Assembly (NCBI GenBank): GCA_041665365.1
Contig: JBAYIY010000001.1
Location: 29,041-93,040 of the forward strand
Source: Patescibacteria group bacterium
GTDB taxonomy: Bacteria; Patescibacteriota; Patescibacteriia; UBA9570
Direction of reading: 5' to 3'
Length of the DNA stretch: 64,000 nucleotides
In this document: one piece after another, positions 39,271 through 48,750 of the stretch
How the letters are laid out: each line of letters starts with the position of its first letter
Numbering within the stretch: the stretch's first letter is position 1
Position numbers and translations under genes: made by a program
The notes under the pieces: generated by a model
The model's input: the letters and a program-made list of their open reading frames with translations, nothing else
Told to the model about the DNA's origin: nothing
The model's database searches: none

Positions 39271-39969
39271 TTATTCAGTCACCTCAGTAAACGAATTACC
39301 AATCACCGACAAATGATCAACTAACATGGCACAAGCTTGGTGCATGGCTTGCTCCGGAGTGAGCGTACCATCAGTAGTGACATCCATGAGTAATTTATCA
39401 AAGTTAGTCATTTGTTCCACCCGCACATGTTCAGTTTTGAAATTAACATTACGTACCGGTGTATAAACAGCATCTAAAGCCATAAAACCAACGTCGAGTT
39501 TTTCATCCTCACGGGCTTCCACTGGCACATAACCACGACCTTTTTGCGCCAAAATAGTAATTTCCAGTTTGGCAGAAGCATCGGTTAAGGTGGCAATATG
39601 CACATCTGGGCTCATCACTTCAATATCTGAATTTTTTTCAATATCTTTGGCGGTGACTTTTTTCTTACCAGATACTTTTAAAGTTACTTGCACGGCTTCA
39701 TCTGAAAAAACTTTTAGACGGACTTGTTTCAAGTTTAATAAAATATCAACCACATCTTCTTTGACGTGTTCCATGGTAGAAAACTCATGATCGACCCCTT
39801 TAATTTTGACGGCTGTGATCGCACCACCTGGTAACGAAGATAACAATACTCGGCGCAACGCATTACCCAAGGTTGTACCATAACCCGGATAACATGGTGA
39901 GATAGTAAACAAAGCGTGATTGGTATCAATCGTTTGCGCTTGGATTTGGCTAGGAAGTTGAATATCCAT
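39271..39969 (-). CDS. rpoA: DNA-directed RNA polymerase alpha subunit, N-terminal (dimerisation/assembly) domain only
   Basis: alpha-NTD motifs 'GYGTTLGNALRRVLLSSLPG'. At 232 aa it ends where the NTD ends. rplQ starts 7 bp later, leaving no room for an alpha-CTD. Confidence 0.85.
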   Translation of the reverse strand: MDIQLPSQIQAQTIDTNHALFTISPCYPGYGTTLGNALRRVLLSSLPGGAITAVKIKGVDHEFSTMEHVKEDVVDILLNLKQVRLKVFSDEAVQVTLKVSGKKKVTAKDIEKNSDIEVMSPDVHIATLTDASAKLEITILAQKGRGYVPVEAREDEKLDVGFMALDAVYTPVRNVNFKTEHVRVEQMTNFDKLLMDVTTDGTLTPEQAMHQACAMLVDHLSVIGNSFTEVTE

Positions 39970-41580: not shown

Positions 41581-41865
41581 TTAGTGTCGATAAATTACTC
41601 TACCTTTAGTTAAATCATACGGGGTCATCTCGAGCGTCACGCGATCACCGGGCAAAACTTTGATCCGATGCATACGCATTTTCCCCGACAGAATACCTAA
41701 TATCTCATGCCCGCTGTCCAGTATTACCCGGAACATGGCATTCGGAAGCATTTCAGTCACCTCACCTTGCATCTCAATAAACCCTTTTTTGGTAGAGCGC
41801 GGTGCGCCACTGCCTGGTTGAGGTTGTACTGGTGCTGGGCGTGAAGTGTTTGAATGATTTGGCAT
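41581..41865 (-). CDS. infA: translation initiation factor IF-1
   Basis: '[31 protein letters not shown]' S1-like IF-1 core. The annotated ORF has a ~20-aa N-terminal extension, so the true start may be internal. Confidence 0.85.
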
Positions 41866-41958
41866 TAAAAAAATACTGCTAAAAAACGAGCTTGGTCGAA
41901 CTTTTGATAGATATTGTCAATTTCTTGGCAAATTCGAGTATTTCGACAAGCAGACAAT

Positions 41959-41987
41959 AGTATACGTAGGCTGAATTGACCTGTCAA
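41959..41987 (-). promoter_or_regulatory. sigma70-like promoter for the infA-rpmJ-rpsM-rpsK-rpsD-rpoA-rplQ operon
   Basis: Minus strand reads TTGACA, a 17-nt spacer, then TATACT. The -10 ends about 95 nt upstream of the infA ORF start. Confidence 0.35.
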
Positions 41988-42059
41988 CTTAACTTTTGTC
42001 AAGCCTGTGGATAACCGGCTTACCTATCAGCTTATTAAGTGATTTGGCATTTTTTTTGG

Positions 42060-42581
42060 TTAGCACTCGTTGGCCAGTTTTGGTTTCGATATCTTTGCGA
42101 GCGTTGCCCAGGCTTTGCGGATTTCAATACTCTTCAGCCGTTGGTTCACCCAATCCGGGCTATAGCCTTTTTTTAAATAGGTTTTTAAAGCTCGACTGAT
42201 AGCTAATTCTGGATCAGCCGTTTCTTCTAAACGTTCATACCCTACCTGTGCCAACCAAAGTTTAAACGGCTCAGCATTTGGTGAGGGAATGGATTGAATT
42301 AGTCGGAGCATAGTTTCGGTATCAGCTGCGTCAGTTATGTAATACTTACCGTCTGATGACTGCAATTTCAGTTGGTGACATTTTGTCACCAACTCACTTC
42401 CCTCTTTACGGAGTCGTTCTGCCAGCTTATTCCAGTACTTCCTAGCATCAACACTGTCAGTTAGGACACGAACCACGTCAATAACCGAAAAGTACCACAA
42501 TTCTTTGTCTGCGTCCCAATGGCGTCTGATCTGGCTACCTTGAAATAAGGCAATGGCTTCTTTTTTAGATTTCATAACCAA
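42060..42581 (-). CDS. Bro-N domain protein (DinD / phage-antirepressor-like)
   Basis: 'IRRHWDADKELWYFSVIDVVRVLTDSVDARKYWNKLAERL' resembles Bro-N/DinD family N-termini. Locally higher GC (~47% by eye). Confidence 0.5.
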   Translation of the reverse strand: MVMKSKKEAIALFQGSQIRRHWDADKELWYFSVIDVVRVLTDSVDARKYWNKLAERLRKEGSELVTKCHQLKLQSSDGKYYITDAADTETMLRLIQSIPSPNAEPFKLWLAQVGYERLEETADPELAISRALKTYLKKGYSPDWVNQRLKSIEIRKAWATLAKISKPKLANEC

Positions 42582-42658
42582 ATCTTACCCCAAAAAAAGG
42601 CTATTGTAAAGGCCGTTTTAAGCCAAAATTGGCTTATTAGTTAGCATGGGTTAAATCC

Positions 42659-43072
42659 CTACCAATTTAAATACGTAATCGTGAGTTGCAATATGGTCGC
42701 GAATGTCACCCACAACAAATAGGGTATCTGAACATACGCCACCCATCGTATCCGGGGATAAATGACTACCATACACCAAATGAGGGTGCTGAGCACTAGG
42801 AGAATATCCACGGCTGCCAGCCAGTTGCTTCTTAGGCCAAACTGAATTGGAGTGAAGACAGCATTAAAGATCAGGTTCAACACAAATGGTACGGCCATCA
42901 TCCGCGGTAATTGTTTCTTCCAGACCATCCAAAATACTGTACCAAACGAAATGGCAATCAATCCGTACAGCACCGTCCACGCTGGGCCAAATAACCAGGT
43001 TGGCGGCGCCCAGGTGGGTTTAATCAATTGTGCATACCAGCTAGGGATGTCCATTAGGTGTAGTATAGTCAA
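42659..43072 (-). CDS. TspO/MBR (tryptophan-rich sensory protein) family membrane protein
   Basis: 'PSWYAQLIKPTWAPPTWLFGPAWTVLYGLIAISF' signature N-terminus and Trp-rich TM helices. Confidence 0.7.
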   Translation of the reverse strand: MTILHLMDIPSWYAQLIKPTWAPPTWLFGPAWTVLYGLIAISFGTVFWMVWKKQLPRMMAVPFVLNLIFNAVFTPIQFGLRSNWLAAVDILLVLSTLIWCMVVIYPRIRWVAYVQIPYLLWVTFATILQLTITYLNW

Positions 43073-43147
43073 TCGCGGATTTCTTGCATAGATTAAAGGG
43101 TTTTATTACACTGAAGCTGGTTGGGGTGGGATGGATGGTGTGGGGGT

Positions 43148-43429
43148 TTATTTTTTGAACTTTGGCCATCGATTATAACCCACCGACGGATCATTGGATT
43201 TTAACTTTTTTATATAATCAACCTCAATTTTATTTACTTCCTCATCAGGTGCATCTTCAGATTGCCAAAGAATTTCTCGCCGAATAGTAAAATCTTTTTT
43301 ATCAGTGTCTGAAAAATCTTGCTCAAGTATTTTACTATCAGGGCTACCGAAGTATCTAAAAGTCCCGGTCAAATCTTTACCAACATAGATTTTCCCGTTT
43401 GGATATGTGATTTTATATATCCACTTCAT
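43148..43429 (-). CDS. small GIY-YIG nuclease superfamily protein (YhbQ/UPF0213-like)
   Basis: 'WIYKITYPNGKIYVGKDLTG' matches the GIY-(x10)-YIG spacing. No additional domain. AT-rich. Confidence 0.45.
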   Translation of the reverse strand: MKWIYKITYPNGKIYVGKDLTGTFRYFGSPDSKILEQDFSDTDKKDFTIRREILWQSEDAPDEEVNKIEVDYIKKLKSNDPSVGYNRWPKFKK

Positions 43430-43501
43430 ACAGTGTTACTAAGTAAAAAGTTATTGAATAGTTATTTCCGTTAAATTGGTGGGAATGGGGTGAGTGGTTT
43501 C

Positions 43502-43984
43502 CTATCTATTAACTACCGGCAAATATGTGCATCTGCAAAATGGTTTGCCATTTTGATTCATATCATAAGTGCAACGTGGATTTGGTATTGGCATATTTTC
43601 AAAAGCCTCTTTCAAATCAAATATTTTACCGCTATTAATATTACAGTGAATGCAACCTGAATTACATAAAATCTCCACTTTTTCACAGCCCAGTTCCTTA
43701 AGTATTTGCAATTCCAATTTTGCGGCAGCAGCATTTTCTTTAAAACTGTCTTTTCCTTCCTCATTCAGATACAGAGCCATTGTGAAATAAATCATTTTTT
43801 GATCTTGCAGGTCAGTGGTTTTAAGAATTACTAAATTAAACAATGACCATAATGTGTCACCATCAGATGCAGGTTGACCAAATTTCTTTGTTAGCTTTTC
43901 CTTCTGATTCTCAAAATCCTTCCCAGATACACCATAAGCTGATAGAGAATTAAGATATTTTTTTATATAGGCCATAAAACTCAT
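43502..43984 (-). CDS. hypothetical protein with Cys-rich C-terminus (putative metal-binding)
   Basis: C-terminal 'CEKVEILCNSGCIHCN...PRCTYD...FCRCTY' cluster of nine Cys. I recognise no family. Confidence 0.4.
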   Translation of the reverse strand: MSFMAYIKKYLNSLSAYGVSGKDFENQKEKLTKKFGQPASDGDTLWSLFNLVILKTTDLQDQKMIYFTMALYLNEEGKDSFKENAAAAKLELQILKELGCEKVEILCNSGCIHCNINSGKIFDLKEAFENMPIPNPRCTYDMNQNGKPFCRCTYLPVVNR

Positions 43985-44042
43985 TTTAGAATAACATCAC
44001 CACCTTTGGCTATATGATCCAAATTGGAAAATGTTACATTTT

Positions 44043-44780
44043 CTAATAGTGAAAACGTGGGTCAGTTGATAATTCATCCTTCAGCTTCTGATTCTGCTGT
44101 CCTAATTCTTTGAGCCTAGGAATAAAACTATCTATAAATTGCATTTCTTGAGAGTTATTGTTTATGTCATCAAATAAATCCATTAAGCCCATCGCGATAT
44201 TTCCCACCAACCACAAATCAGATTTGACATGTAACTCATCCTCTAAATCAAAATAGGGTGTATCAAATTGCCCTGCAACTCTATTGAAACTGAATGTTTT
44301 CATAGCATAGATAATATTTGAATGTGAAGTGGTCGAATTAATATGATCCTTAATTTTCTGTATGTGGTTAGAACCGTCACGATGATACGTTGTGATCCAT
44401 TTGTACCTTTTATTCTTTAGTGCGTCTGATGCTTTCAGTATTCCTTGTTCATCGTAATCAGCAAAACCATCAACCGACGGATTGGCAATTGCATAAGCAG
44501 CACATGTACCGGCTTCCAAAACCTGACGTAAGTCCATCATGGCTTGCGTGTGATGCAACCTAAGTGCGGAGAATAGGGCAAGTGTGTGATGTTTTCTAAT
44601 CTGTGACAGAAAAATTACAAAAACTCCTAGTTTGGGGCTAACTGACTTCAAAAAAGTATTTAGGAGAGTATTTAAGTTTGATGCATTTAGAAAATGCTCG
44701 TCATATCGTACTTTCCCTTCGAGAACCAGTTTTGTCTCAGTCTCAATAATCTCACCGATAGTTCCCTGCTTGATTCCCAT
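44043..44780 (-). CDS. hypothetical protein
   Basis: Unrecognised 245-aa ORF. Starts 5 bp after the alaS stop. AT-rich (~33% GC by eye). Confidence 0.4.
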   Translation of the reverse strand: MGIKQGTIGEIIETETKLVLEGKVRYDEHFLNASNLNTLLNTFLKSVSPKLGVFVIFLSQIRKHHTLALFSALRLHHTQAMMDLRQVLEAGTCAAYAIANPSVDGFADYDEQGILKASDALKNKRYKWITTYHRDGSNHIQKIKDHINSTTSHSNIIYAMKTFSFNRVAGQFDTPYFDLEDELHVKSDLWLVGNIAMGLMDLFDDINNNSQEMQFIDSFIPRLKELGQQNQKLKDELSTDPRFHY

Positions 44781-44785
44781 AAATA

Positions 44786-46552
44786 TTAACTCTCCTCCAC
44801 CACCGCCTTAATCCGCCTCACGCCAGCGGAACAAGCTTCTTCCTTCAGGATCTTAAAGTGACCAACCTCTTGAGTATTGTTCACATGCGGGCCACCGCAG
44901 AATTCTTTGGAGAAATCACCAACGATGTAGACTTTCACTTTGACGTCGTACTTGCTATCGAATAAACCAATGGCTCCCAGCTTATGGGCTTCTTCCACAC
45001 TCATGATTTCATAATGCACCGGCAAAGCACGTTTAACTTGTTCGTTGACCATGTCTTCAACTTGTTTAAGTTGTTCAGTGGTCATTTTTTCGGGGTGGGA
45101 AAAATCGAAACGGAGACGCTCCGGGGTGATGTTGGAACCTTTTTGGTAGACATGCGGACCGAGGATGCGGCGGAGGGATTCTTGCAATAAGTGTGTGGCG
45201 GTGTGACCGCGGATGGTTTCCCAGGAGGCATCGGCTAGACCACCTTTGAACCGTTTTTGGGCACCAGCGCGGGATTGCTCTTGGTGTTGTTTATAAAAAT
45301 CATTGAAGCCATCTTCATCTATCGTCAGGTTTTTTTCTTTGGCCATTTCTTGAGTAAATTCTAAGGGGAAACCATACGTATCAAAGAGATGAAAAGCATG
45401 CTCCCCCAACATAACTCCACCACGAGGAATGTTTACAGTGAGCCTATCGAACTGTTTTTCCCCTTTTTCTAAAGTCTTGGCAAATTTTTCTTCTTCATTA
45501 ACTAACTCTAGTTTGATTTCGGAACGTAAATCATTAAATTTCGGATAATATTGTTTGAACATATCAATAACGATGTCGGCTAGGTCTTGTAAAAAATAAC
45601 CTTTGATACCTAATTTACGTCCATGACGAATAGCGCGGCGAATTAAACGACGCAATACATAACCTTGATCGATATTTGAAGGTGAGGCACCATCGCAAAT
45701 CATAAATGTAGCAGCGCGAACGTGATCGCAGATTATTTCCTTTGAAGTATCCCCGTGGGTGGTGGCCAGTTGATTGATTTTATCCATGATTGGGACAAAC
45801 AAATCGGTTTTATACACCTCGTCTAAACCATTGAGCACAGCGGTGACGCGTTCTAAGCCCATGCCGGTATCAACATTTTTTTGTTTAAGCGGTTCAAATT
45901 TTCCATCGGCCGTTTTTGAATACTGCATGAACACATCATTCCAAATTTCCACATACTTACCACACGAACAACTTGGGTCACACTCGGGTTTACATTTTTC
46001 TATGCCGACATCATAAAACATTTCGGTGTCTGGTCCACATGGGCCGGTCACACCAGCTGGACCCCACCAATTTTGCGCTTTGGGAAAAAAATAAATGCGT
46101 TCATCGGGAATACCTAGGTTGCGCCATAAAATAGCTGATTCATCATCACGCGGGGCATCGGCGTCACCGGCAAACACACTAACCGATAACCGCTCCACTG
46201 GGATGCCGAGCCAGTCTTTGCTGGTTAAAAATTCAAAACTCCAAGTGATGGCTTCTTTTTTAAAATAATCGCCTAACGACCAATTGCCTAACATTTCAAA
46301 AAAAGTTAGATGCCAGCGATCACCGACTTCTTCAATATCACCAGTGCGCACACATTTTTGCACATCAGTTAAACGCACCCCTGCCGGATGTGGTTCCCCC
46401 ATTAAATACGGTACCAATGGGTGCATACCGGCCGTGGTAAACAACACCGTTGGATCATTGTCCGGAATCAACGAGGCCGAACCAATAATGGCGTGATTCT
46501 TACTCGAAAAAAAATCTAAATACTTCTGCCTTATTTCATGTGAAGTAATCAT
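44786..46552 (-). CDS. alaS: alanyl-tRNA synthetase (catalytic + editing domains, lacks C-Ala domain)
   Basis: Class II catalytic core ('FTTAGMHPLVPYL', 'FEMLGNWSLGDYFK') and editing-domain 'HTATHLL' / 'CGGPHV' motifs. Only 588 aa. Confidence 0.85.
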   Translation of the reverse strand: MITSHEIRQKYLDFFSSKNHAIIGSASLIPDNDPTVLFTTAGMHPLVPYLMGEPHPAGVRLTDVQKCVRTGDIEEVGDRWHLTFFEMLGNWSLGDYFKKEAITWSFEFLTSKDWLGIPVERLSVSVFAGDADAPRDDESAILWRNLGIPDERIYFFPKAQNWWGPAGVTGPCGPDTEMFYDVGIEKCKPECDPSCSCGKYVEIWNDVFMQYSKTADGKFEPLKQKNVDTGMGLERVTAVLNGLDEVYKTDLFVPIMDKINQLATTHGDTSKEIICDHVRAATFMICDGASPSNIDQGYVLRRLIRRAIRHGRKLGIKGYFLQDLADIVIDMFKQYYPKFNDLRSEIKLELVNEEEKFAKTLEKGEKQFDRLTVNIPRGGVMLGEHAFHLFDTYGFPLEFTQEMAKEKNLTIDEDGFNDFYKQHQEQSRAGAQKRFKGGLADASWETIRGHTATHLLQESLRRILGPHVYQKGSNITPERLRFDFSHPEKMTTEQLKQVEDMVNEQVKRALPVHYEIMSVEEAHKLGAIGLFDSKYDVKVKVYIVGDFSKEFCGGPHVNNTQEVGHFKILKEEACSAGVRRIKAVVEES

Positions 46553-46590: not shown

Positions 46591-48750
46591 TTATTGTCTT
46601 TTTGTTCTTAATGCACTGTGCAATTCATCAAATCGTTTTATAATGGTGTAGTCATCTAGTGCAGCCGTCATGGCTTCATAATTATCTGCGTTTAATTTAC
46701 GCAAAATTTCGCGGGCTTTTTCAATGATCGTCGAGGACTTACCGGGACGAATCATTCGTTCGAGGTGGCGTAATCCACTGGATCGTTGCACTAGATATCG
46801 CAATTCGGCAGCATCTTCTGGCTTGATATCAGGAGAAAAATCAATCAATAATGCTGGTAGAACTTCACGTAAACGTGTCCGAAATTTAGGGCTGTCTTTT
46901 AAGAGGCGATCAAACTCTGAGCGTCCTTTCAATTCTTCATACACTTGTTTTTGTAAGGTGTTGTCTTTAAAAATAAATTTATCAACATGATAATCACTGA
47001 GTGATGCGCTTCTAAGATAGGATCGAATAATTTTTTGAAAATTTATAATAGGATCACGTTGGGCAATTTGGTACACGATTTCTATTTCTGTATGATCCGC
47101 CTTATCGGCGATGGTTTGATATTGTTCATTAATCGCCGCTGCTAGTCCGTCAGGCAATTCTGCTGGAACACCGTGTTGTCGCATTAATTCAACAACCTTC
47201 GATGTAAAAAACACGCGTTCTTTGGCACGGGTTTGTTCGTGAATAATGTTCGCAGAAAACTGTTGTCCGATGGCTATGATACGATTATCTTCTACCTGAC
47301 TTAAATCATAGGTGGTTCCAAACTGCTGAATGGCTAAACTTCGATAATAATCTTGTTCTGCAACGCTCAAAGAAGTAACTGGAGGAAGTTCAGCTGGTGC
47401 TTCGTTGCTGCCATCAATTTTCACCATATAATATTCAAGAATATCTTTTAATTGCTCGGAATGATGCGGAGCAGTCAGAGGCATATCAAGGGCAACGGCT
47501 CTAACGACAGGCTCCATACGTAATAGAGTATGATCTAAACCGATAATTTTTTTTGTATCCAGATCTCGTTTTGCCCACGTAGCATCCGTTATAACGGAGT
47601 TAGCTGATCCATCGCGTGTCACGGTCACAAATGAATTCCAGGCGTGCCCAACTTTATTTAAATTATGTGATAAATAATCATCTCGTTCTGGAGCAAAAGA
47701 GTCATCACCCTGCTCAAAAAGAGCGTAAGTATTACGTAATCGATTATATTGAGTTTGATTGGCTTTAAGTGCCTCAAACACACCTTTAACAGCACTGGCA
47801 AAATTCCGACACACTCCATTACCTTCCCAAGTAGGGTCGGTTCGTCTTTGTAAACCTTCTTGCAATAACTGTAACACTGTACTTTGATCAGCTACAGTAT
47901 CTTGACCGACTACTAAATCACCCCGCTCAGCTTTAGTATCACTCCATTTATATTTCGTTAAATCAACTACCAAACTAGTAGCTAATTCTACGGCTTGACT
48001 AGGCGACAATGCATCTAATTCTTTTATCCCCAATCCTTTAGCAATTTCAGCTCCTTCCCCTTTTATATATTTTATAATAAAATTATATAGTTTCTTTTCC
48101 CAACCTCTTTCTTTAATTGTTTCTTGATAAGTTTTAGCGCTTGGTGCAGTTCCATCTAGACGACCGTCGCTCATTAAATATTTTTCGACTGAAGCAGGGA
48201 TAGGATGAGCCTGTTCCGCTGCAGCTACCTGGGGATGAAAAGACTTTAATTCTGAAAAAGCGATCGTATTATCTGGTGAAGGTTGTAGTCTGAGTAATGG
48301 ATGATCAATGACACGTTCTTCGGCTTCAACTGTTGTTAAAAAATAGGCTTTGGCTTCATCCCAAGTATCAAAAATAAAAGAGGTTGTAGCTAAATAATAT
48401 CTGCCAGTTTCATCTATTCCGCCCGGTACGGTCACTTTATAACGGCCATCCGCTTCTAACTTAATGTTGAAAAAATGATCGCCGGCATAGGTTTTATCTA
48501 ATGAAGCACGCTCGGTTGCAATGCGCACATCATTTTTTGATATTTCAACGCGCGCTCTGGCTGTCGCTTCATCTTCAAATCGTTCTTGACATGTTCCAAC
48601 TATTGAACCATTTGAGCTATCAATCAAGCCAGGTAACGACACTTCGAATTTTCCATCGACCGCAACTATACTATATAGCTCTCGCCCATTTGGATTTATA
48701 AATAAGTCCCTCTTTCTTTCACTAGCTCTAATTGATTCAGAGGTAATCAT
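46591..48750 (-). CDS. large cytoplasmic protein with central transglutaminase-like Cys-His-Asp (papain-fold) core
   Basis: 'GNGVCRNFASAVKGVF' (Cys), 'VGHAWNSFVTV' (His) and 'ITDATW' (Asp) have transglutaminase-like spacing. There are ~300 aa of unrecognised N-terminus and ~320 aa of unrecognised C-terminus. The N-terminus 'MITSE' copies the alaS 'MITSH'. Confidence 0.55.
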   Translation of the reverse strand: MITSESIRASERKRDLFINPNGRELYSIVAVDGKFEVSLPGLIDSSNGSIVGTCQERFEDEATARARVEISKNDVRIATERASLDKTYAGDHFFNIKLEADGRYKVTVPGGIDETGRYYLATTSFIFDTWDEAKAYFLTTVEAEERVIDHPLLRLQPSPDNTIAFSELKSFHPQVAAAEQAHPIPASVEKYLMSDGRLDGTAPSAKTYQETIKERGWEKKLYNFIIKYIKGEGAEIAKGLGIKELDALSPSQAVELATSLVVDLTKYKWSDTKAERGDLVVGQDTVADQSTVLQLLQEGLQRRTDPTWEGNGVCRNFASAVKGVFEALKANQTQYNRLRNTYALFEQGDDSFAPERDDYLSHNLNKVGHAWNSFVTVTRDGSANSVITDATWAKRDLDTKKIIGLDHTLLRMEPVVRAVALDMPLTAPHHSEQLKDILEYYMVKIDGSNEAPAELPPVTSLSVAEQDYYRSLAIQQFGTTYDLSQVEDNRIIAIGQQFSANIIHEQTRAKERVFFTSKVVELMRQHGVPAELPDGLAAAINEQYQTIADKADHTEIEIVYQIAQRDPIINFQKIIRSYLRSASLSDYHVDKFIFKDNTLQKQVYEELKGRSEFDRLLKDSPKFRTRLREVLPALLIDFSPDIKPEDAAELRYLVQRSSGLRHLERMIRPGKSSTIIEKAREILRKLNADNYEAMTAALDDYTIIKRFDELHSALRTKRQ

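Follow-up and report, generated by a model that had tools for sequence, protein, structure and literature searches.

The window analysed here, a 64-kb (64,000-nucleotide) fragment of a Patescibacteria (Candidate Phyla Radiation, CPR) genome with a guanine-plus-cytosine (GC) content of 41.4%, carries a patch of 2.8 kb (positions ~42017-44785, minus strand) in which five co-directional genes lie between the stop codon of alaS and the conserved promoter of infA. Read along the minus strand, the gene order is mnmA, p719, alaS, p245, p160, GIY93, TspO, Bro-N and infA, followed by rpmJ-rpsM-rpsK-rpsD-rpoA-rplQ-rplM-rpsI. The five open reading frames (ORFs) of the patch are at 42060-42581 (Bro-N), 42659-43072 (TspO), 43148-43429 (GIY93), 43502-43984 (p160) and 44043-44780 (p245), all on the minus strand, just where an earlier interpretation of the letters alone (the sequence-only reading) had put them. 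Independent assemblies from ENA, JGI and Logan (L081-L083, L231) have the same gene arrangement, which is therefore not a chimera or an assembly artefact.

A scan of a genome collection with alaS supplied the relatives. The two closest reference genomes lack the patch at this junction, and infA directly follows alaS in them, 169 nt after it in L001 (alaS 70% identical) and 178 nt after it in L003 (62%), and the ribosomal cluster downstream is collinear in both. The order mnmA-alaS-infA-rpsM was found in L001, L003, L055, L059, and L063. The proposal of an accessory insertion was thus borne out, but the placing of the five genes in the secY-adk-map position was misleading, since the conserved neighbour of infA in this lineage is alaS and secY-adk-map has not been displaced. 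More distant CPR genomes contain unrelated genes in the alaS-infA gap, such as an FtsA-like gene or a membrane protein of 430-620 aa. A Kerfeldbacteria contig (L091) has its TspO gene 3.8 kb upstream of infA, the two being separated by six other genes; TspO, a 113-aa gene and OTCase are common to L091 and L092 with different inserts between them, and L092 and L224 show yet other arrangements. All that L091, L092, and L224 have in common with the window is TspO or Bro-N.

The composition of the patch is uneven. Gene GC in the window averages 41.5% (standard deviation 3.1), and against these genes GIY93 and p160, at 33.3% each (both z -2.66), are the lowest in the 64 kb. The values for p245 and Bro-N are 37.7% (z -1.2) and 43.7% (z +0.7), the latter normal for the window, and TspO reaches 46.6% (z +1.7) with a GC at third codon positions (GC3) of 57.2% (z +4.2). 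In a tetranucleotide scan with 1-kb windows (n=253), the stretch 43251-44500 took ranks 1 and 2 of 253 (z 3.3) and was also lowest in GC, the p245 stretch had the lowest GC-normalised tetranucleotide correlation (z -4.2), and the Bro-N/TspO half was unremarkable (z below 1). The low-GC block is thus the strongest tetranucleotide outlier in the 64 kb. A shift in GC within the island had been read by eye, and its direction is confirmed by both gene GC and the tetranucleotide scan, but several of the values were off: the ~46-47% given for Bro-N and TspO is right for TspO and not for Bro-N, and the ~33% given for the three distal genes is right for GIY93 and p160 and not for p245. A spread from 33% to 47% GC within so short a segment (2.8 kb) speaks for multiple sources.

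The gene nearest to infA, Bro-N (42028-42581, minus strand), has an ORF of 173 aa (42060-42581) of which residues 1-156 are native. The Bro-N domain itself is sound (PF02498, residues 18-112, 34.5 bits vs a cut-off of 25.6), but the label 'DinD-like' was not upheld, as no NCBIfam DinD match was obtained at E<=0.1. The protein matches the PADLOC profile PDC-S13 at 1.9e-76 over profile positions 3-155 of 286 only, PADLOC PDC-S04 again over half the profile, and PHROG 15286 over profile positions 3-154 of 274; the C-terminal half of PDC-S13/phrog_15286 (~120 aa) is not present in frame in the window copy. The comparators, with stop codons excluded, were plasmid homologues of 298 and 281 aa and a gene of 286 aa in L224. 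Relative to this last gene, to which the window copy has 82% nucleotide identity, L224 positions 1232-1505 are missing, and a deletion of ~271 nt at 42108-42112 shifts the frame so that the ORF then ends at 42060. A C-terminal remnant, GNARKDIETKTGQRVLTKKNAKSL, lies in another frame at 42028-42108 and aligns to residues 243-266 of the 298-aa homologue. From the half-profile coverage, the deletion, the frameshift and the out-of-frame remnant, we read Bro-N as a pseudogene or, at most, as a gene for a shortened protein with the Bro-N domain. A 17-nt repeat (D1, 41850-41866 vs 42035-42051) was considered as a target-site duplication of the infA start and rejected, its second copy being the Bro-N remnant 'KKNAKSL'.

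Upstream of Bro-N is a promoter-like region (motif P, 42582-42630, minus strand) with TTTACA-17-TAAGAT, matching 9/12 positions, and a small hairpin ahead. L224 has the beginning of a second Bro-N gene at its right end, and motif P is 80% identical over 46 nt to the region upstream of that gene. Viral contigs L211 and L213 also contain 20 nt that match the Bro-N promoter exactly, but the sequence around them is unrelated and the match was dismissed as chance. A 33-nt piece of the window Bro-N coding sequence (42367-42399), with the palindrome GTTGGTGACAnnnnTGTCACCAAC, also occurs at 94% identity in L224 (2202-2234) and L225 (1251-1283), where it lies ~140 nt downstream of TspO and outside any Bro-N gene. 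Full-length relatives of Bro-N adjoin cas genes, a nucleotidyltransferase/DUF86 pair, and type I restriction-modification (R-M) genes; on the Arcobacter cloacae plasmid pACLO (L093, 1516-2412), a full-length PDC-S13-type Bro-N stands between cas4 and cas1 in a type I-B CRISPR adaptation module. A literature search on PDC-S13 found nothing relevant, and we take PDC-S13 itself to be only a candidate phage-defence entry (PADLOC-DB v2). The window copy serves as a worked example that a PADLOC PDC-S13 match can be a dead gene.

TspO/MBR (42659-43054, minus strand) is intact and encodes 131 aa with four transmembrane helices, the mechanical ORF extending to 43072. Its identity was confirmed by a PF03073 match (106.5 bits vs a cut-off of 24, 1.3e-30) over profile positions 19-144 of 145. 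Among 7994 matches, almost every one of the best 120 is 130-134 aa long, and those of the 120 that have names are mostly Patescibacteria; the possibilities of an N-terminally truncated pseudogene and of an exotic import from outside the CPR were both ruled out, this length being standard among the 120 best matches and the protein a normal CPR-wide short form. The best match among them is in Kerfeldbacteria L091, with 95% protein identity. At the nucleotide level the window and L091 are 91% identical in TspO and ~70% in the infA region, and identical codons at conserved residues amount to 76.6% in TspO and 42.4% in infA; on both counts, the simplest reading is that TspO was probably exchanged recently among CPR lineages. 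Its GC3 is 53-62% in every host examined (L091, L092, L224, L226, and the window), with local host GC of 40-50%. In L092, L224, and L225, a full-length Bro-N directly precedes TspO, and the window order is reversed. Our search of the literature on TspO in Patescibacteria found nothing relevant. The short four-helix TspO of many CPR lineages thus comes with evidence for movement between lineages.

GIY93 (43148-43429, minus strand) encodes 93 aa that form a GIY-YIG-like catalytic domain and lack a DNA-binding one. At E<=1e-3 its family comprises 1079 cluster representatives, and most of the 150 best listed are 90-130 aa long. In the family an IYKIT...NGKIYVG hairpin, Glu69, and Asn86 (the GYN motif) are conserved and the canonical Arg after YIG is not. 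Direct matches are weak (PHROG homing endonuclease, 3.6e-4; TIGR01453, 0.004); GIY93 itself has no PF01541 match, and the 7 of 37 family members that do match are all below threshold. With hhalign, the family aligned to I-TevI over the hairpin alone with a probability of 7.5%, and a PDB sequence search with the GIY93 profile gave nothing meaningful. There are 42 relatives in IMG/VR, and those sampled at the distant end are homing endonucleases combining GIY-YIG with NUMOD or I-TevI DNA-binding modules, several of them above the Pfam GIY-YIG threshold. The ORF of the 93-aa GIY-YIG protein therefore stands, but the domain is supported indirectly, via homology to viral GIY-YIG proteins, the direct matches being sub-threshold. 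We interpret GIY93, on these homologies, as a catalytic-domain-only derivative of phage GIY-YIG homing endonucleases.

Upstream of GIY93 in the direction of transcription, p160 (43502-43984, minus strand) has a helical N-terminal domain and a Cys-rich C-terminal region. Its real start is probably at 43975, giving 157 aa. Six homologues were found, with CPR names where the source was named. The regions around them are variable ones too, with lspA and comM-like genes nearby or, on a contig predicted to be viral, within a stretch that is R-M-like. The window protein has no Pfam match and a weak one to TIGR01641 (SPP1 gp7; E 0.089), and five of six family members match Phage_Mu_F (PF04233) below threshold (best E 0.0028). 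In the predicted structure the N-terminal domain is helical and the Cys-rich tail poorly resolved, and the model had no informative structural neighbour. The C-terminal region is possibly MuF/SPP1-gp7-like and Zn-binding.

The fifth gene, p245 (44043-44780, minus strand), is intact and encodes 245 aa of an unannotated all-alpha family of ~250 aa. Its ATG is 5 nt past the alaS stop, and its Shine-Dalgarno sequence, GGAGGAG, lies within alaS. More than 270 homologues of ~250 aa with 42-60% identity were found, under names from several CPR classes, Schekmanbacteria, Binataceae, and a 'Pacearchaeota' bin. The family has no domain model: Pfam and PADLOC scans of 33 homologues gave no consistent family, and a PDB sequence search with the p245 profile gave nothing meaningful. 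AlphaFold gave a confident all-alpha model (pLDDT 91.7) with a weak HEPN-like core; p245 nevertheless lacks the Rx4-6H motif and resembles neither PrrC nor other HEPN families in sequence, and membership in HEPN was not upheld. The context set of 83 loci fell into 65 non-redundant groups, and 52 of these groups had flanking sequence of 1 kb or more. A serine recombinase lies by the p245 homologue in 11 groups, being in 8 loci a large, convergent one 20-39 bp downstream and in one soil lineage a small resolvase 14 bp upstream. The homologue lies between or beside hsdM and hsdS in 7 groups, and 34 groups have neither serine recombinase nor hsdM/hsdS. The window copy has no R-M or recombinase partner. 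These recombinase and hsdM/hsdS contexts mark p245 as what we take to be a mobile- or defence-island-associated gene family, unannotated and well conserved, which its genomic contexts make a reasonable candidate for defence screens.

Short junction sequences lie at the gene boundaries. Motif A (43113-43153, minus strand), C-rich and directly past the GIY93 stop, is 81% identical over 43 nt to L224 208-250, and motif B (44014-44048, minus strand), directly past the p245 stop, is 86% identical over 35 nt to L224 637-671. In L224, a 3.4-kb contig, motif A follows an unrelated ORF and motif B an unrelated DUF3147 gene, so that motifs A, B, and P are all common to the window and L224 and each abuts different genes there. 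Within the window, motifs A and B occur once each, and they are dissimilar to each other; beyond it, L224 alone was found to share them, and in IMG/VR scans B had no match and A three chance-level matches. C-rich direct repeats flanking GIY93 were also considered and discarded, their local alignment being no better than shuffled (p about 0.18). The integrase or att remnant that the sequence-only reading wished to see searched for did not turn up within 10 kb on either side, flanking repeats were not above chance, and Rfam and tRNA scans of the whole window gave nothing. The pattern of motifs and genes fits repeated recombination in a long-lived variable locus. A bolder idea is a cassette-exchange locus upstream of infA, in which single small genes would be exchanged precisely with no integrase nearby, motifs A, B, and P and paralogous Bro-N genes serving as the boundaries, in an integron-like manner specific to reduced genomes and, in a related proposal, with p245 as a new defence effector family in R-M operons and serine-recombinase elements; we regard this as very unlikely, and an integron-like cassette array was not found here, there being no integrase and no repeated recombination site at each cassette boundary.

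Roughly 230 loci were fetched for context comparison, and in no other of them did p245, p160, and GIY93 occur together. The recurrent pairing is that of Bro-N with TspO (L092, L224, and L225); otherwise there is one R-M island, L097, in which a p245 homologue has a full-length Bro-N 2.5 kb upstream. L097 excepted, homologues of p160 and p245 never lie beside other island genes. With one pseudogene and two compositional classes, a coherent five-gene system is unlikely, and the island of the sequence-only reading breaks up into at least two or three separately derived pieces at a locus that is variable in relatives too (L091, L092, and L224). Two points of that reading did hold: domains of mobile or phage type are present, namely Bro-N and the GIY-YIG relative, and there is no named defence system, PADLOC-DB v2 giving the half-length Bro-N match and nothing for the other four proteins.

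Based on these data, we consider it probable that this is a mosaic accessory patch between the alaS stop and the infA promoter, assembled by several horizontal acquisitions and rearrangements and then subject to decay. One piece would be the Bro-N/TspO module, with 82-91% nucleotide identity to related CPR contigs, in which TspO was probably exchanged recently and Bro-N has decayed; the other would be the low-GC block of three unrelated genes, p245, p160, and GIY93. The position of the p245 ATG next to the alaS stop and of its Shine-Dalgarno sequence inside alaS suggests that p245 is co-transcribed with alaS. The other patch genes may use weak promoters of their own, and infA would likewise be served by its own promoter, which would leave the ribosomal operon undisturbed. 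Since no integrase is present, turnover has probably come about by homologous or illegitimate recombination at the short conserved junction sequences and paralogous Bro-N genes. The patch is an ordinary variable hotspot with a dead gene in it and not a new multi-gene system; what was shown directly is that the nearest relatives lack it, that its composition is uneven, that Bro-N is a pseudogene and that its genes are distributed independently of one another.

A tightly packed, co-directional set of genes that includes a match to a PADLOC candidate (PDC-S13), a nuclease-like protein (GIY93) and a family (p245) with homologues found within type I R-M operons or close to recombinases might be thought a single defence or toxin-antitoxin-like system acquired as a unit, either as all five genes or as the three low-GC ones, and the joint presence of a p245 homologue and a full-length Bro-N in L097 points the same way. 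We hold this to be very unlikely, because its three low-GC members are not united in any other of the fetched loci, the neighbours of p160 and p245 homologues are unrelated, Bro-N is a frameshifted deletion remnant, the two halves differ sharply in composition, and PADLOC is blank for the other four proteins; the trend so far is that no pair of these families shows neighbour enrichment. The phage-type character of Bro-N, of the MuF/SPP1-gp7-like motif in p160 and of GIY93 with its 42 IMG/VR matches, together with the pseudogene and the atypical composition, could instead suggest the decayed remnant of one prophage or integrative element inserted once downstream of alaS. However, an integrase, a tRNA, an att repeat and structural phage genes are all lacking, p245 barely occurs on viral contigs (one distant match), the sole viral match of p160 is in an R-M-like and not a structural context, the TspO and Bro-N pieces have different partners in relatives, and a single insertion sits poorly with 33% vs 47% GC inside 2.8 kb. 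This origin is improbable in our view.

Another explanation inverts the direction of change, with the region being ancestral to the clade, vertically inherited, and deleted in L001 and L003. TspO is indeed upstream of infA in Kerfeldbacteria L091 too, and more distant CPR genomes have other genes between alaS and infA, but those gap genes (the FtsA-like gene and the large membrane protein) are unrelated to the ones in the window, no other part of the 64 kb stands out in composition as strongly as the low-GC block, TspO has a synonymous divergence far below that of the adjacent infA, and L091, L092, and L224 share no more than TspO or Bro-N with the window. Such loss from an ancestral state is highly unlikely. 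Several points also weigh against the mosaic that we prefer. The empty alaS-infA junction is seen in two reference genomes only, both distant (alaS 62-70%), so the timing and number of events are inferred; L091, which is nearest to the window by infA, spans just 4.9 kb and ends short of alaS; and the evidence of the junction motifs comes from one other contig family (L224/L225). TspO is less diverged at synonymous positions than its neighbours throughout, the comparison of L091 with L092 included, and its conservation could partly reflect strong constraint instead of transfer. The functional readings of p245, p160, and GIY93 are putative only.

The genes on either side of the patch are conserved. 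On the left, alaS (44786-46552, minus strand; Pfam tRNA-synt_2c, 3.5e-141), whose stop codon is the left edge of the insertion, encodes a short AlaRS of 588 aa with the C-terminus ...AVVEES, 2 residues beyond the ...AVLE of relatives. This short AlaRS is ~58-61% identical to versions from Spirochaetota, Bacillota, Kiritimatiellia, and Lentisphaerae metagenome-assembled genomes (loci L004-L080), about the same identity as to most other CPR genomes, which hints that the short alaS type may be widely shared or exchanged. Between mnmA and alaS lies p719 (46591-48750, minus strand; 719 aa) with a low GC3 (0.27), no match in Pfam, NCBIfam, PADLOC or PHROGs, and no viral relatives. Since mnmA and alaS are adjacent in L003, L027, L055, and L059, p719 represents another lineage-specific insertion, this one beyond the opposite end of alaS.

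On the right, infA (41581-41865, minus strand; Pfam eIF-1a, 2.8e-26) heads the infA-rpmJ-rpsM-rpsK-rpsD-rpoA-rplQ-rplM-rpsI cluster. Its 94-aa product has a Pro/Gln-rich N-terminal extension of ~25 residues ahead of the IF-1 domain (Pfam match 30-93), and N-terminal extensions likewise occur in L001, L064, and L091. Within the cluster, rpoA (39271-39969, minus strand) encodes 232 aa with the N-terminal domains RNA_pol_L and RNA_pol_A_bac, and the domain scan reported no alpha C-terminal domain. The infA promoter region (41866-42016, minus strand) aligns to the alaS-infA spacers of L001 and L003 and to L091, and contains a near-consensus promoter, TTGACA-17-TATACT, at 41959-41987 (11/12 positions in the promoter scan). 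About 20 nt upstream of the -35 element, at 42006-42014 (minus strand), is TTATCCACA, a perfect DnaA-box consensus. Four genomes from the sub-clade (the window, L001, L003, and L091) keep it at -149 to -168 relative to the infA ATG, with diverging bases around it; it has only 2 copies in the 64 kb and is absent from more distant CPR genomes. We regard it as a conserved DnaA-box-like site upstream of infA, predicted from its letters and position and worth keeping in view.

Even a very reduced CPR genome thus keeps a small accessory locus of fast turnover beside essential translation genes, with the infA promoter undisturbed. The current view of genome organisation is unchanged by these findings; what is most worth keeping from them is the p245 family, the mobile short TspO, and TTATCCACA.

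Among known systems, the patch as a whole most resembles the variable hotspots or genomic islets found at core-gene junctions, in that it lies between two conserved genes, has an atypical composition, holds mobile- and defence-type genes together with a pseudogene, and differs in content among relatives. It departs from them in being very small (2.8 kb), in having no integrase, tRNA or direct repeats, and in directly preceding the promoter of a ribosomal-protein operon within a reduced CPR genome. The single genes have counterparts of their own. Bro-N agrees over its N-terminal 155 residues with PDC-S13, a single-gene Bro-N family of ~286 aa, but the window copy is frameshifted and without ~90 internal residues. 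TspO has the strong Pfam TspO_MBR match and conserved W/P-rich motifs of canonical forms with five transmembrane helices (TM1-5), such as Rhodobacter TspO, whereas the 131-aa form begins after TM1, which is absent. GIY93 shares the hairpin, the Glu and the GYN motif with the free-standing GIY-YIG homing endonucleases of phages (I-TevI, Seg-like) and has detectable homology to viral GIY-YIG proteins with NUMOD, but it has no DNA-binding module and the canonical Arg is not conserved. Finally, the hsdM/hsdS setting of p245 homologues and the weak HEPN-like core recall accessory genes embedded in R-M operons, such as that of the anticodon nuclease PrrC between hsdM and hsdS, from which p245 differs in having no PrrC/HEPN sequence similarity and, for the window copy, in standing apart from any R-M partner.

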